DNA of 60,918 nt from Clostridia bacterium (GTDB lineage: Bacteria > Bacillota > Clostridia > Christensenellales > UBA1242), in the NCBI GenBank assembly GCA_017444895.1, contig JAFSVR010000017.1:1-60918 (forward strand). Direction: 5' to 3'. Shown piece by piece: positions 4,569 to 59,816 of the stretch (its first letter is position 1; each line of letters opens with the position of its first letter). Below the pieces are notes generated by a model, which saw nothing but the letters and a program-made list of their open reading frames with translations, searched no databases and had not been told where the DNA came from. The position numbers and the translations under genes were made by a program.

Positions 4569-5168
4569 ATGGAAAAAGAAAAAAATGTTTTAGTTCCAAT
4601 GGTAATTGAACAAACAAACCGAGGTGAAAGGTCATATGATATCTATTCAAGGCTTCTTGAAGATAGAATCATCTTCCTTTCAGACGAAATAACAGATGCA
4701 ACAGCAAACCTTGTTGTTGCGCAACTTATTTATCTTGAAGGCAAAGACCCAGATAAAGATATAATGATGTATATCAATAGCCCAGGCGGAAGTGTTGTTG
4801 CCGGCATGGCAATCTATGACACAATGAACTATATAAAATGTGATGTTTGCACAACCTGTGTTGGTATGGCAGCAAGCATGGCAGCAGTTTTGCTTTCAAG
4901 CGGGGCAAAAGGAAAACGTTGTGCGCTTCCAAATAGTGAAATTATGATTCACCAACCACTTGGCGGTGCTCAAGGCCAAGCAAGCGATATTGCAATTCAT
5001 GCTGACCACATCTTAAAAACAAAGAAAAAACTTAACAAGATCCTTGCAGATAATTGCGGACAAGATCTTGCAACCATTGAAAAGGACACCGATAGAGATA
5101 ACTTTATGACGGCACAAGAGGCTCTGAAATATGGGCTTGTAGATAAAATCTACGACCACCGCAAGTAA
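4569..5168 (+). CDS. clpP: ATP-dependent Clp protease proteolytic subunit
   Basis: GMAASMAA (active Ser) and MIHQPLGG (His) motifs; 199 aa. Confidence 0.95.
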
Positions 5169-12880: not shown

Positions 12881-13231
12881 TTAATTAAGTTGAAAATTTT
12901 TTTGCCAAAATATTTTCCTTAATTTTTTGATATCGCTTAGAAATATCCAAAATATAGCGTTCTTTCTGGGTTTCGTTAAGATCGCCGAAATGTTTTTTGT
13001 CAATAAGTTCGCCAATTGGGGAAGAAGTGTCTGGGTTTTTCTCAAGCATTTTTCAACTTTTTTGTATAGCGGGTCATCTTCAATCTTGATGTTTGTTGCA
13101 ATTAGGGCATATTGGTGAAGAGAAAGCCCGGCACTCTTGGTTGTTTTTTCTTGCTCATTATAGTTTTGGGAAATGGTTTTAAGTCTATTTTTTGCTTTTT
13201 GAACAAGAATTTTGAATTCAGATTTACTCAT
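12881..13231 (-). CDS. hypothetical protein with apparent frameshift in an A5 run
   Basis: SD GGAG + ATG 13231. After ...PLYKKVEK the frame gives an implausible W/F/basic tail. The neighbouring frame (13049 down to 12885) reads MLEKNPDTSSPIGELIDKKHFGDLNETQKERYILDISKRYQKIKENILAKKFST. Confidence 0.45.
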   Translation of the reverse strand: MSKSEFKILVQKAKNRLKTISQNYNEQEKTTKSAGLSLHQYALIATNIKIEDDPLYKKVEKCLRKTQTLLPQLANLLTKNISAILTKPRKNAIFWIFLSDIKKLRKIFWQKNFQLN

Positions 13232-47496: not shown

Positions 47497-47703
47497 ATGA
47501 ATTATGAAGAAGCAATAAACGAACTTGAAAAGATTGAAAAAGAACTTGCAAATGGTGATGTTAAAATTGATGAAGCGGTTAAACTTTTTGAGAAGAGTGT
47601 TGAACTATCAAAGTTGTGTTTTGAAAACTTAAAACAAACAGAAGGCAAAATCACAATGCTCAAAAAAGAACTTGATAAAATGGTTGAAGTTCCACTTGGC
47701 TAA
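47497..47703 (+). CDS. xseB: exodeoxyribonuclease VII small subunit
   Basis: 68 aa, YEEAINELEKIEKEL...LFEKSVELSKLC typical XseB. Confidence 0.9.
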   Translation: MNYEEAINELEKIEKELANGDVKIDEAVKLFEKSVELSKLCFENLKQTEGKITMLKKELDKMVEVPLG

Positions 47704-47753
47704 TATTTTTGAAACCAAATAGTTGGTTTAAGGCATACTTTTTTTATAAAAAC

Positions 47754-47785
47754 AAAAACTACTTTCAATGCGGAGTAGTTTTTTT
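47754..47785 (+). terminator. terminator-like hairpin abutting the spoIVB start codon
   Basis: Perfect 10-bp stem AAAAACTACT / AGTAGTTTTT, 10-nt loop containing GCGG of the GGAG SD; the T-run ends at the ATG (47786). Confidence 0.5.
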
Positions 47786-48913
47786 ATGCAACACAATAAA
47801 AACCTTTTGAAAAAAACAATGGCTATTTTCCTTGCACTATGTGTAAGCTTTTTCTGTGTTGTAAAATGTCCAAATAGTTCTGATTCAGCGCTTGCACAGG
47901 CTTCACCAATTAAAAGCATTATTGAATGGCTGTTTTCTGGGCAAAGAGACGCTACTGATTCTCAAATACAAACTGCGCCAATGCCAGAGGTGTATGTTGG
48001 TGGGGTGCCACTTGGTTTTGTTTTGAATTGTGATGGTGTTGTTGTGGTGGCGGTTGGAGAGGTTGTTTCACCAAACGGAACACGCAGCCCTGGCCAAGAG
48101 GCCGGAATTGTTGCTGGCGATATTGTGTATTCAATCTGTGATAAGATTGTCACATCAGCAGGTGTCATTGAAAACTTAATTAATCATGGGAAAAATGCTG
48201 GGCGAGAACTAGATGTTACCATAAAAAGGGCAGGTGCAACGATAAACACTAAAATATCCCCTTGCTTTGATATTTCTTCCGGGAAATATAAACTGGGGCT
48301 TTGGATACGTGACGATGCTGCGGGTGTTGGAACATTAACATATATTCGGGTTGACAATGGTCGTTTTGGGGCGCTTGGGCATCCGGTTTGTGACATAGAC
48401 ACTGGTTCGTTATTGCCAATTTCTAGCGGGCAAATTTACGCTTGCAATATCTTGGGTGCAACAAGAGGTGAACGGGGAAAACCGGGTGAACTTAAGGGCT
48501 TGTTTTTGCACAACGGTGTTAAAATTGGAACCCTTGATAACAACAATAATTATGGGGTTTTTGGAACGTTTGATTATGGTGAATATCCAAACCAATTAGA
48601 AAAAATGCCAACAGCATCAAAAAACGAAATCAAGCTTGGCAAGGCTGTTTTAAGATGTACAACAAATGGCACAAAGCCAAACGACTATGAGGTTGAAATT
48701 ATTAAAAAGGGCGGAATAATAGATAACAAAAATAATATGGTTATAAGAATTATAGATGAAAAGTTACTTTCTGAAACTGGCGGAATTGTTCAAGGGATGA
48801 GTGGAAGCCCTGTAATTCAAAATGGCAAATTGATTGGGGCGGTAACCCATGTTTTCGTTAGTGACCCAACTAAGGGCTTTGCCACTTTTATTGAAAATAT
48901 GCTTGAAGGGTAG
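47786..48913 (+). CDS. spoIVB: SpoIVB peptidase (S55), sporulation signalling protease
   Basis: N-terminal TM, PDZ-like GIVAGDIV, GTLT, catalytic-serine context GMSGSPV; immediately upstream of spo0A as in endospore formers. Confidence 0.85.
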   Translation: MQHNKNLLKKTMAIFLALCVSFFCVVKCPNSSDSALAQASPIKSIIEWLFSGQRDATDSQIQTAPMPEVYVGGVPLGFVLNCDGVVVVAVGEVVSPNGTRSPGQEAGIVAGDIVYSICDKIVTSAGVIENLINHGKNAGRELDVTIKRAGATINTKISPCFDISSGKYKLGLWIRDDAAGVGTLTYIRVDNGRFGALGHPVCDIDTGSLLPISSGQIYACNILGATRGERGKPGELKGLFLHNGVKIGTLDNNNNYGVFGTFDYGEYPNQLEKMPTASKNEIKLGKAVLRCTTNGTKPNDYEVEIIKKGGIIDNKNNMVIRIIDEKLLSETGGIVQGMSGSPVIQNGKLIGAVTHVFVSDPTKGFATFIENMLEG

Positions 48914-48924
48914 GCGTTTGTCAT

Positions 48925-48960
48925 ATTTTTGAATATTTTTGTTCAAAAATATTCAAAAAT
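48925..48960. repeat. 36-bp perfect palindrome (17-bp arms, 2-nt centre); possible spoIVB terminator or operator
   Basis: ATTTTTGAATATTTTTG-tt-CAAAAATATTCAAAAAT, followed by GTTTT. Confidence 0.6.
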
Positions 48961-48962
48961 GT

Positions 48963-48991
48963 TTTACAACAAAAATTTTATGTGATAAAAT
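48963..48991 (+). promoter_or_regulatory. sigma-A-type promoter with extended -10 upstream of spo0A
   Basis: TTTACA (48963-48968), 17 nt, TGaTAAAAT (-10 at 48986-48991). Confidence 0.5.
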
Positions 48992-49009
48992 GGTTTCAGG
49001 GTGGAAGAA

Positions 49010-49729
49010 ATGGAACTACATATGATAGCATTGAGCAATAGGTTTGATATGGGATCTATGGCGTCAAATTATAACTTTAATGGTGATAATTTTGTTCTAA
49101 GGATGGTTGCAACCAACTTTGGTGATTTGCTTAATGGAATAGTTAAGTATTCTCCGCAAGTTGTTATCATAGATGCTGAATATCAGGTGGCATATTGCTC
49201 TTTAAACGATTTGATTGAAATTGTTTCAAAAATTTATAAAAACGACATTGTTATAATTTCAGGCAACGTTAAAAAATCTGAAAACTATTATGTTGTTAAT
49301 CCATTCTTTTGGAAGTCTGAGTTGGTTCGCATTCTTGCCAAAATTGCCAAAAAACTAAAAAGTGGTTCAGGCTCAAAAGGTGCCTATACTCTCCAAGAAA
49401 TAATAACACAAAGACTTCTGAAATATAATCTGCCATCAAATTTGCTAGGCTATAATTATCTTATTAAAGCGATAGAAATATGTTATCACAGGCATTGTTT
49501 CATAAAAAATATAAAAACAGACATATATGATAAGGTTGCAAAAGAATTTGGAGTTTCAGCAGACAATGTTGAAAGGAACATAAGAAATGCTCTTAATGTT
49601 GCAAAACTTGAACACCAGAGAAAGGGGAATAAAAATAACTATCTATTCGGTGAGTTTTGTGAGATAACAAACAAAAGGTTTATTATTGGCGCAACAACGG
49701 AAATTTGTTCAAGTAAGCAAGGTTTTTAA
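49010..49729 (+). CDS. spo0A: Spo0A-family sporulation transcription factor with degenerate receiver domain
   Basis: C-terminal Spo0A-specific domain (LLGYNYLIKAIEICY...VSADNVERNIRNALNVA); position after spoIVB. The receiver lacks DD (IALSN) and the conserved Lys (VVNPF). ATG 49010 follows GGTGGA (ORF opens at 49001). Confidence 0.75.
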   Translation: MELHMIALSNRFDMGSMASNYNFNGDNFVLRMVATNFGDLLNGIVKYSPQVVIIDAEYQVAYCSLNDLIEIVSKIYKNDIVIISGNVKKSENYYVVNPFFWKSELVRILAKIAKKLKSGSGSKGAYTLQEIITQRLLKYNLPSNLLGYNYLIKAIEICYHRHCFIKNIKTDIYDKVAKEFGVSADNVERNIRNALNVAKLEHQRKGNKNNYLFGEFCEITNKRFIIGATTEICSSKQGF

Positions 49730-49750
49730 GATGGTTAAATAGTTGCATCG

Positions 49751-49785
49751 GTTTCTCATATAATTAAATATGAGAAACTTTTTTT
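49751..49785 (+). terminator. rho-independent terminator after spo0A, overlapping the next start codon
   Basis: Perfect 11-bp stem GTTTCTCATAT-aattaa-ATATGAGAAAC followed by TTTTTTT; ATG 49770 lies in the 3' arm. Confidence 0.65.
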
Positions 49786-50396
49786 ATGATCTAAAATTTG
49801 AAATGAAAGAGCATTTTCAAAAAAGTAAAACGATATTTATTATATTATTTATATTTGCGCTTGTTGGGCTAGTTTTGGGGATATTTGCAATACTTTCAGG
49901 AACAAGCTTTTCAGGGGTGTTAAGATATAGCGACAAAAATATCCTAAATTATATTTCGGGTTCAGCAAGCACAGTAAGCATTTTCCTATCAAAGCTCTTT
50001 GAATCAGTAGTTTGTTTCTTGCTAATATATATTTTCTGTTTAAGCAGTGCAACTGCGTTGTTGAGCTATGTGTTTTTTGGATATCAAAACTTTTTGCTTG
50101 CAATAAGTTGCAGTGTGATTATTGATATCTATGGTTTTCCTGGGGTTCTCAATGTTGCTATTTTGATTATTCCAATCAATTTGGCGGTCATTTTTGTTAT
50201 GGCGCTTGCAATCAGTGTTGCCCGAATAAGGGCAATGGAGGCAAAAAAATATAATGAGCCATTAAGCGCTAGTTTCAAGATGAGTGGATTTTATAAAAAA
50301 TACTTAATTGTGTTTTTGCTGATGATTGTTGTATGCTTAATATATTCTTTTATTATGCCACTTCTTTTGAAAAGTTTTTTGCTAATTTTATATTAA
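49770..50396 (+). CDS. SpoIIM-like (DUF95) polytopic membrane protein
   Basis: 208 aa, ~5 TM. The N-terminus MRNFFYDLKFEMKEHFQKSKTIF resembles B. subtilis SpoIIM MRKVSVKDSLKEHVQRHSSIY (from memory). Confidence 0.5.
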   Translation: MRNFFYDLKFEMKEHFQKSKTIFIILFIFALVGLVLGIFAILSGTSFSGVLRYSDKNILNYISGSASTVSIFLSKLFESVVCFLLIYIFCLSSATALLSYVFFGYQNFLLAISCSVIIDIYGFPGVLNVAILIIPINLAVIFVMALAISVARIRAMEAKKYNEPLSASFKMSGFYKKYLIVFLLMIVVCLIYSFIMPLLLKSFLLILY

Positions 50397-58757: not shown

Positions 58758-59816
58758 ATGAGTAAAATTAAAGTTGTTCAAATTGGTTGCGGAAAAATGT
58801 CGAAATACACCATGCGATATGTGCTTGAGAAAGGTGGTGAAATCGTTGGAGCATACGATATCAATCCAAAGGTTATTGGAAAAGATATTTCTAAAATCAT
58901 TGGTTTGAGAAATCCTATTGGAGTTGCTGTTAGCGATGTTAAAACTCTTGATGCAACAATCAAGAAAACAAAGGCTAATGTTGCAATTGTAACAACAATG
59001 AGCCTCATGAGCGATTTGTATGATGTTCTTATGATTTGCGCTAAAAATGGTATCAATGCAATAACAACTTGCGAAGAGGCGTTCTATCCATGGAACAGCA
59101 GCGAGAAATTAACAAAAGCTATTGATAAAGTTGCAAAAGAGCATAATTGCACAATCGCAGGAAGCGGATACCAAGATGTTTATTGGGGCAACCTTATCAC
59201 AACCATTTGTGGCTCAACGCATAAAATAACAAAGATTAAAGGCAAGAGCAGTTATAACGTTGAAGATTATGGTATTGCACTTGCAGAGGTTCATGGCGCA
59301 GGCTTAACTCTTAAAGAGTTTGATAAGCAAATTGCTGCTGCTGATAACATTTCTGATGAGGAAAGAAATGCACTTATCAAAAAAGGCGAATTCTTGCCAA
59401 GCTATATGTGGAACGTTAATGGCTGGCTTGCAAGCCAACTTGGGCTCCATGTTACAAGGCAAACCCAGAAATGTGTTCCACAAACATATAAAACAGATCT
59501 TAAATCTTCAACCCTTGGCCTCACAATTCCAAAGGGCAATGCAACTGGTATGAGCGCAGTTGTAACAACAACCACAAAAGAGGGCATTGTTATTGAAAGT
59601 GAGTGCATCGGAAAGGTTTATGGACCAGATGAGTTTGATTGCAATGAGTGGACTGTTTATGGCGAACCAGACACAACAGTTGTTGTCAATCGCCCTGCAA
59701 CAGTTGAACTTACTTGTGCAACAATCGTTAACCGTTTGCCAGATGTAATTAAAGCCCCAGCAGGCTACTATACAACTGAGAAAATGGAGCGCTCACACTT
59801 CCATATTCAATTCTAA
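58758..59816 (+). CDS. NAD(P)-dependent oxidoreductase, DapB-like / 2,4-diaminopentanoate (amine) dehydrogenase family
   Basis: N-terminal Rossmann KVVQIGCGKMS; size and layout recall the Ord/native amine dehydrogenase family. Assignment is from memory only. Confidence 0.45.
   Translation: MSKIKVVQIGCGKMSKYTMRYVLEKGGEIVGAYDINPKVIGKDISKIIGLRNPIGVAVSDVKTLDATIKKTKANVAIVTTMSLMSDLYDVLMICAKNGINAITTCEEAFYPWNSSEKLTKAIDKVAKEHNCTIAGSGYQDVYWGNLITTICGSTHKITKIKGKSSYNVEDYGIALAEVHGAGLTLKEFDKQIAAADNISDEERNALIKKGEFLPSYMWNVNGWLASQLGLHVTRQTQKCVPQTYKTDLKSSTLGLTIPKGNATGMSAVVTTTTKEGIVIESECIGKVYGPDEFDCNEWTVYGEPDTTVVVNRPATVELTCATIVNRLPDVIKAPAGYYTTEKMERSHFHIQF

Follow-up and report, generated by a model that had tools for sequence, protein, structure and literature searches.

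An orthologue of Spo0A with a degenerate receiver-like domain: a candidate for phosphorylation-independent control of sporulation

Can Spo0A, the master regulator of sporulation, act if its receiver domain has lost the residues that serve phosphotransfer? The question is raised by a spo0A gene in the 60,918-bp stretch of DNA analysed here (the whole of it is called the window below), whose host is an uncultured lineage of gut Clostridia with a low G+C content and probably a small genome. According to a 2024 review, sporulation begins in all endospore formers with the phosphorylation of a conserved Asp residue of Spo0A, itself a highly conserved regulator (PMC11210211). The effort of the field has gone largely into finding the kinases and phosphorelays that carry out this reaction. 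We propose that the window gene encodes an orthologous Spo0A whose action does not require phosphorylation; the pseudo-receiver would have been retained for dimerisation, partner binding or tuning, and control would have moved to the level of expression. We regard this explanation as fairly probable.

The open reading frame (ORF) lies on the + strand and runs from a GTG at 49001 or an ATG at 49010 through 49729. We took the ATG as the start because the database copy and the nearest orthologues begin with MEL..., and all residue numbers given here count along the resulting 239-aa product. The parts of the gene that the argument needs are the following.

49010..49729, + strand: spo0A orthologue, 239 aa plus stop (ORF, Spo0A_C domain, MEL... 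starts)
49010..49360, + strand: degenerate receiver-like N-terminal domain, residues 1-117 (hhalign, AlphaFold2, Foldseek; no PF00072 match)
49031..49036, + strand: codons Leu8-Ser9, at the position of the Mg2+-binding Asp-Asp pair (MAFFT alignments)
49172..49174, + strand: codon Asp55, the retained phospho-acceptor position (MAFFT, hhalign, canonical-receiver HMM)
49259..49261, + strand: codon Ser84, at the beta4 Ser/Thr position (MAFFT alignments)
49298..49300, + strand: codon Asn97, at the beta5 Lys position and followed by Pro98 (MAFFT alignments)
49391..49726, + strand: Spo0A_C DNA-binding/effector domain, residues 128-239 (Pfam, PDB matches 1fc3/1lq1)
~49559-49624, + strand: recognition helix, residues 184-205, ...DNVERNIRNALNVAK... 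(alignment)

An intact effector domain behind a receiver without its pocket

In its C-terminal half the protein has kept the Spo0A DNA-binding/effector domain intact. This domain is matched by Pfam Spo0A_C (PF08769) over residues 132-225 with an E-value of 3.4e-15 and 56 bits (cutoff 25), and a phmmer search of the PDB returned the Spo0A C-terminal domains 1fc3 and 1lq1 as the only matches, with no receiver among them. In the AlphaFold2 model (mean pLDDT 87.9) this domain resembles 1lq1/1fc3 with TM-scores of 0.74-0.85 relative to the target, according to Foldseek. In the alignment with canonical Spo0As, the recognition helix (NVERNIRN vs RVERAIRH) shows no variation at E188, R189 and R192. 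Against the Spo0A equivalog model TIGR02875, with its cutoff of 200 bits, the full-length protein reaches 45.7 bits, and the segment beyond the recognition helix diverges from canonical Spo0A and is variable or deleted in relatives.

In the N-terminal half, Pfam Response_reg (PF00072) finds no match even at E<=10. Profile comparison with hhalign of the N-domains of a clade of 22 proteins, described below, against canonical Spo0A receivers aligns residues 13-88 with residues 14-90 of the B. subtilis protein (84% probability, E 7e-6), and a hidden Markov model (HMM) of canonical Spo0A receivers matches residues 13-56, with Asp55 falling in the phospho-acceptor column. The pocket was mapped with MAFFT against eight canonical Spo0As and the B. 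subtilis Spo0A, in which the acidic pair is Asp10-Asp11. In this alignment the Asp-Asp pair corresponds to Leu8-Ser9, the phospho-acceptor Asp56 to Asp55, the beta4 Thr (IMLTAF) to Ser84 and the beta5 Lys (ILKPF) to Asn97, with the Pro residue after it kept. Thus, where a complete phospho-acceptor pocket consists of Asp-Asp, Asp, Thr/Ser and Lys, the window protein presents Leu8-Ser9, Asp55, Ser84 and Asn97. The N-domain is a descendant of the Spo0A receiver that has lost the two Mg2+-binding Asp residues and the beta5 Lys.

The predicted fold has changed as well. The original prediction, made by reading the bare sequence, had recognized the Spo0A effector domain in the C-terminal half, which the Pfam, PDB and Foldseek searches corroborate, and had made the same pocket assignments as our MAFFT alignments, namely an acidic pair turned into Leu-Ser, a beta5 Lys turned into Asn, and a remaining Asp and Ser. 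It erred in holding that the receiver half aligns without gaps: in the MAFFT alignment some 8-10 residues, the equivalent of helix alpha4, have been lost from the stretch between beta4 and beta5, and AlphaFold2 puts a loop and an extra strand at residues 9-25 in place of alpha1. The two AlphaFold2 runs, one of them made from seven subclade-A sequences alone (pLDDT 83.8, pTM 0.81), agree in this and in the absence of alpha4. The predicted N-domain, with neither alpha1 nor alpha4, would consist of strands beta1 (2-8), the extra strand (19-23), beta2 (26-34), beta3 (51-55), beta4 (79-83) and beta5 (93-96), and of helices alpha2 (37-47), alpha3 (65-75) and alpha5 (98-117). The Asp residue of the RFDMGS sequence, which had been considered as a possible substitute for the lost acidic residues, does not rescue the pocket, as the relatives have Q, E, K, S and S in this column, and no profile alignment sets an acidic residue or a Lys in the pocket positions. 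Alpha1 is the main helix by which receivers dock with kinases and phosphotransferases, and the loss of the acidic pair drastically lowers receiver phosphorylation in CheY and PhoB mutants.

Foldseek compares the N-domain with the receiver domains of DesR, VicR, MtrA and AraT at TM-scores of 0.5-0.63, and small GTPases score similarly. The domain-only model returned Rab5, FeoB and Ras; we rejected a small GTPase, with its weak E-values, because the sequence has no P-loop motif and because its profile matches are with Spo0A receivers.

Relatives and receiver-free sister forms

Relatives were collected with HMMER, run in full against 1.8 billion representative proteins, and with two word-index searches. 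The clade that was aligned comprises 22 proteins, the window protein included, and was supplemented with 11 further non-clade sequences to give 33 in all; the window protein, P0002-P0007 and P0018 make up subclade A, and P0026 and P0153-P0164 make up subclade B. The full-length relatives are just 16-38% identical. As the original prediction had suggested checking, the relatives share the substitutions: the acidic pair is lost in all 22 clade proteins, with no acidic residue at either beta1 position, and the beta5 Lys is lost in nearly all of them (subclade-A relatives have N, D or S), the P0018 lineage alone having a Lys near the beta5 position, in a placement that depends on the alignment. 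The phospho-acceptor Asp is kept in 21 of the 22 (P0023 has Glu in the column and an adjacent Asp), and the column of Ser84 varies among relatives (T, T, S, A, S, K). Spo0A_C matches 33/33 aligned proteins and Response_reg 11/33, which is the number of the non-clade sequences; apparently, none of the 22 clade members matches Response_reg. Precomputed Pfam assignments list PF08769 alone for all 17 clade proteins.

Partly degenerate receivers are also found in three unrelated Spo0As, P0042, P0122 and P0151. The first of them is devoid of the phospho-acceptor Asp (VVVCPAIMPGG), and P0122 is devoid of the Lys and of one Asp. The erosion of the Spo0A receiver may have happened several times.

Every relative of the full-length divergent group whose locus was fetched has its gene in the canonical spoIVB-spo0A position, and we therefore consider the gene an orthologue rather than a side copy. 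The relatives come from uncultured metagenome-assembled genomes (MAGs), classified as "Clostridiales" or "Clostridia" of the human gut and the goat rumen, as "Tenericutes HGW-4" from groundwater and, in one case, apparently as Spirochaetales. The contigs of several relatives measure 0.6-1.06 Mb, pointing to a genome size of about 1 Mb. The SpoIVB homologues are likewise divergent, with best non-self matches at most 57% identical. In the gut family UBA1242 (Christensenellales), whose genomes are below 1 Mb, sporulation genes, which small genomes usually lose, have been reported to persist unexpectedly (PMC12306168); the window and its relatives may belong to this family.

The closest SpoIVB homologues led to sister loci in which the receiver is gone altogether. 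In L055 (5198-5566) a 122-aa Spo0A_C protein without any N-domain begins 94 bp after spoIVB, with the palindrome and promoter described below as in the window, and the position next to spoIVB is occupied by a 164-aa Spo0A_C protein in L060 (4211-4705) and by one of 159 aa in L061 (4225-4704). L057 and L059 contain further degenerate full-length forms. In L056, no spo0A is present between spoIVB and the spoIIM-like gene (5134-5166), both of which remain. To judge by these genes, the receiver is dispensable in the lineage, and the natural truncations fit a Spo0A activity that is no longer tied to a receiver switch. The isolated DNA-binding domain of Spo0A binds genuine targets without phosphorylation (PMC3485338).

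Spo0A_C domains without a receiver are frequent in the database as a whole. There are many proteins with 2-5 tandem copies (P0006, P0008-P0013, P0016, P0017, P0022 and others) and many stand-alone proteins of 110-170 aa, among them P0014, which is the protein of L055.

The putative spo0A promoter and its surroundings

Two elements precede the gene.

48925..48960, no strand assigned: perfect 17+17 bp palindrome ATTTTTGAATATTTTTG-TT-CAAAAATATTCAAAAAT (arms 100% complementary)
48963..48991, + strand: sigma-A-type promoter-like site, TTTACA, 17-nt spacer, TAAAAT, TG extension (consensus scan 10/12, TG present)

The palindrome abuts the -35 box of spo0A and is built of TTTTTG/CAAAAA units (TTCAAAA) with a spacing of 10 bp. 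Ahead of spo0A in L001-L007 and L055 it varies hardly at all (at about 9906 in L001-L004, 6262 in L005, 9907 in L006, 9915 in L007 and 5114 in L055), with a protein identity of just 34-36% and no conservation of the flanking DNA. The extended -10 element TGTGMTAMWAT is kept in L001, L005 and L007, recurs upstream of spo0A in L022, and is one base off in L006 (TATGATAATAT). A tandem pair of TTCAAA(A) close to the promoter is found also in L021, L060 and L061, and related units with 10-bp phasing, TTTTGTAAAA and TTTTGAAAA, occur in L022 and L057-L059. Within the 61-kb window the strict tandem TTCAAAA pair is found at spo0A only.

Tandem 0A boxes, too, are phased at 10 bp. The TTCAAAA unit agrees with the reverse 0A box TTCGACA in five of seven positions, and two of the three 0A-box positions that are contacted base-specifically (G2, C4, G5; PMC3485338) differ in it. 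The spo0A genes of C. difficile and B. subtilis are autoregulated via 0A boxes (PMC3485338), and this knowledge, together with the likeness and phasing of the units, makes autoregulation via diverged boxes attractive here. Judging from its conservation, the palindrome may be an operator or upstream promoter element of spo0A, perhaps a diverged autoregulatory 0A-box array; the main rival to the latter reading is that it represents phased A-tracts or an UP element. Classic 0A boxes give the box reading no support, as the window contains one exact TGTCGAA (at 58798, not near spo0A) and 5.5 are expected by chance. We also considered the palindrome as an RNA terminator of spoIVB, for it folds at -16 kcal/mol. 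An element acting at the DNA level is favoured over a terminator, as the likelier of the two, because the mismatches in the arms of relatives are not compensated and because L021, L060 and L061 have the tandem half alone. No regulon could be derived from the palindrome: a scan of metagenome contigs for TTTTTGAATATTTTTGNNCAAAA gave 32 loci, among which only L049 carries spo0A (its contig is that of L005), L040 carries a complete palindrome among unrelated genes (RhuM, Nudix, sulfatase), and the others are partial chance matches.

The neighbouring features of spo0A in the window are as follows.

47768..48913, + strand: spoIVB, conserved upstream neighbour of spo0A (TIGR02860, Peptidase_S55)
49750..49779, + strand: 12-bp hairpin followed by a T-run, likely the spo0A terminator (terminator scan, RNA fold -13.8 kcal/mol, z = -3.7)
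49770..50396, + strand: membrane protein, weakly SpoIIM-like, conserved downstream neighbour (TIGR02831, 34 bits, cutoff 100)

SpoIVB is identified by TIGR02860 (335 bits, cutoff 305) and by Pfam Peptidase_S55 (E 9e-78), which upholds the claim of the original prediction that spo0A directly follows spoIVB. The adjacency of spoIVB and the spo0A position is seen in L001-L007, L021, L022, L055, L057 and L059-L061. Of the sporulation neighbours named in that prediction, spoIIIA, spoIVB and ytfJ stand, whereas the designation "spoIIM-like" relies on the weak match listed above; a syntenic gene of about 207 aa matching this neighbour is found in L006, L007, L021, L055-L057, L059 and L061, and one of 180 aa in L060. 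The gene order in the window and in the relatives fetched is nusB-xseA-xseB-(recN)-spoIVB-spo0A-spoIIM-like-dac-M50-scpAB-ytfJ, and the loci of subclade B read argR-recN-spoIVB-spo0A. In the window, the spoIIIAA-AH operon lies upstream of spo0A and is confirmed by Pfam, and ytfJ lies downstream; nusB, xseA/xseB and an Asp23-family gene upstream of spoIVB, as well as the D-Ala-D-Ala carboxypeptidase, M50 peptidase, scpA/scpB and second carboxypeptidase genes downstream, were assigned by synteny with relatives, those upstream with relatives annotated by Pfam. RecN is encoded between xseB and spoIVB in most relatives (L001, L021, L022 and L056-L061) and is absent from this place in the window (47703-47768) and in L055.

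The hairpin at 49750-49779 is likely the terminator of spo0A. Its 3' arm holds the ATG of the spoIIM-like gene (49770), and it could also mask translation initiation of this gene. Overall, the window has 37.7% G+C and about 64 genes, almost all on the + strand, with the main exception at 12881-13231. No RNA family was found by Rfam at gathering thresholds over the whole 61 kb, and no histidine kinase or other response regulator is evident among the window ORFs, most of which were identified by eye from their N-termini.

Proposed regulation without phosphorylation and its alternatives

A histidine kinase or a Spo0B-type phosphotransferase would not be expected to phosphorylate the N-domain efficiently, as this domain has lost both the catalytic pocket and the helix for docking, alpha1; Spo0A would then act as a phosphorylation-independent transcription factor. 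The original prediction of a pseudo-receiver outside the control of a conventional kinase or phosphorelay is supported in this respect, as far as comparison of sequences can tell, by the losses that relatives share, the absence of alpha1 and the receiver-free forms of sister lineages. The pseudo-receiver itself may be retained as a structural module for dimerisation, partner binding or tuning of the DNA-binding domain. We infer such a role from purifying selection and from the conservation of Ser9-x-Arg/Lys11, Asp55, Trp101-Lys102 and Arg107. In subclade A the invariant residues of the N-domain are Ser9, Pro49, Asp55, Ile80, Arg107 and Leu109, and the motifs kept in most members are Ser9-x-[R/K]11, GDLLN and W101-K102-x-G-x-x-R107. 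The closest usable pair, L001 and L006, gives dN/dS values of 0.25 for the N-domain and 0.08 for the C-domain, which are rough because dS exceeds 1 and synonymous sites are near saturation. The conserved motifs and the dN/dS values together lead us to regard the N-domain as constrained, though not for the chemistry of phosphotransfer, and this pattern suggests that it is not a decaying remnant. More speculatively, the on/off decision could have moved to the amount of Spo0A, with the TTCAAAA palindrome by the -35 box mediating the control of abundance, possibly as diverged 0A boxes with positive autoregulation. A broader scenario, in which an entire lineage of Clostridia with genomes of about 1 Mb sporulates without the phospho-switch, its pocket destroyed or its receiver deleted, and relies on autoregulation through TTCAAAA 0A-like boxes, is put forward here only tentatively, as the less likely of the two proposals.

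Several points weigh against our proposal, apart from the roughness of the dN/dS values. Asp55 is invariant in the aligned subclade-A proteins and is kept in at least 90% of the aligned sequences, which would not be expected if it were never modified, and the conserved Lys102, five residues past the canonical position, could conceivably rebuild a pocket together with Arg/Lys11. It is above all the invariance of Asp55 that the proposal leaves unexplained. In atypical regulators of the GlnR type the conserved Asp takes part in a structural salt bridge, and by analogy such a bridge is one possibility here. In some relatives the counterpart of the sigma-A-activating segment of B. subtilis Spo0A is deleted or shows little conservation, so that the protein could be a weakened regulator. 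Finally, that these organisms sporulate is presumed from genes in MAG sequences.

In one alternative, the gene would be a relic: Spo0A-controlled sporulation is being lost, the gene is decaying or has been repurposed, and the erosion of its N-domain reflects relaxed selection. This alternative, which we deem unlikely, agrees with the usual loss of sporulation in small genomes (PMC12306168), with sister genes that are truncated (L055, L060, L061) or missing at the locus (L056), with a TIGR02875 score far under the cutoff, with a variable or deleted segment after the recognition helix, and with an N-domain that evolves about three times faster than the C-domain. However, no relative has a broken ORF, both domains show dN/dS values below 1, the residues of the recognition helix do not vary, the promoter element has remained nearly invariant over deep divergence, and spoIIIAA-AH, spoIVB, ytfJ and the dac genes are intact nearby, in genomes with little space for dead genes.

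A cryptic phospho-switch, in which Asp55 is phosphorylated through a remodelled pocket (Ser9, Arg/Lys11, Lys102) or by a non-canonical donor or kinase and thereby gates activity, appears to us somewhat less likely still. It would account for the invariance of Asp55 in full-length members of subclade A, for the co-conservation of Ser9, [R/K]11 and W101-K102, and for the beta4 Ser/Thr still present in the window protein. On the other hand, no clade member has an acidic Mg2+ ligand at either beta1 position, the canonical Lys has gone, the predicted fold has neither the alpha1 docking helix nor alpha4, receiver-free versions stand behind the same promoter in sister lineages, and the textbook CheY and PhoB mutants illustrate how drastically the loss of the acidic pair cuts phosphorylation in other receivers.

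That the window copy is an accessory paralogue, with a canonical, phosphorylatable spo0A elsewhere in the genome, is improbable: the window covers 61 kb of the genome only, stand-alone and tandem Spo0A_C proteins are common in databases, and one Spo0A with a canonical receiver and the same NVERNIRN recognition helix (P0165) is found on short contigs from gut-type samples, but the ancestral spoIVB-spo0A slot is occupied in all relatives, their genomes apparently measure about 1 Mb, and the context of P0165 is a different one, comEC-spo0A-smpB. The P0165 loci are L062 (2927-3658) and L063 (152-883), one of them from the same study as L057 (ERZ286534xx-ERZ286538xx assemblies), and P0165 may represent an outgroup or else an additional copy within a related genome.

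If an orthologous Spo0A acting without phosphorylation is indeed what the window encodes, it would be a natural counter-example to the universal phosphorylation of Spo0A, within a sporulation machinery kept in a tiny genome, and would reveal a minimal sporulation trigger operated by expression level, autoregulation or partner binding. Such a finding would surprise specialists in sporulation, and it is directly testable. It also has a practical side: the clade proteins score below the equivalog cutoff and are annotated as "hypothetical" or "Spo0A C-terminal domain-containing", so that the group may be miscalled when spore formation in gut MAGs is predicted from genomes. In the literature we found no description of a Spo0A with a degenerate or absent receiver.

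With canonical Spo0A, as known from B. subtilis and C. difficile, the window protein shares the two domains joined by a linker, the Spo0A_C domain with the E-R-x-x-R motif, the place next to spoIVB, and repeats ahead of its own promoter reminiscent of autoregulatory 0A boxes. It differs in a receiver without the Asp-Asp pair, the Lys, alpha1 and alpha4, which fails PF00072 and leaves the protein at 45.7 rather than 200 bits on TIGR02875, in upstream repeats that read TTCAAAA and not TTCGACA (TGTCGAA), and in the divergent segment after the recognition helix.

Atypical response regulators such as HP1043, ChxR, NblR, JadR1 and GlnR function independently of phosphorylation and keep the Asp. The term has been applied to the actinomycete GlnR in particular (PMC3087709). 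The window protein resembles this group in the fusion of a degenerate-pocket receiver, which in the atypical regulators serves as a constitutive dimerisation or regulatory module, to a DNA-binding domain, and its pocket, with both metal ligands and the Lys replaced, is degenerate in a way that does not accord with Mg2+-dependent phosphotransfer. However, the atypical regulators have effectors of the OmpR/PhoB or NarL type and the full (beta-alpha)5 fold, and none of them is a sporulation master regulator. The aspartate-less receivers (ALRs; PMC4395418) offer another parallel, namely a receiver-derived domain that has left phosphotransfer signalling. They are defined by the loss of the phospho-acceptor Asp, whereas the window clade keeps this residue and loses the metal ligands and the Lys; the window protein is not an ALR, because its Asp is kept.

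The sad67 deletion yields an engineered, constitutive Spo0A. Like the isolated Spo0A DNA-binding domain, it illustrates that Spo0A_C works unphosphorylated once the inhibitory contacts with the receiver are removed, and the forms of 122-164 aa (L055, L060, L061) are the natural counterparts of such proteins. The constitutive variants are laboratory constructs of B. subtilis, whereas the window protein keeps an N-domain that is conserved and under selection.

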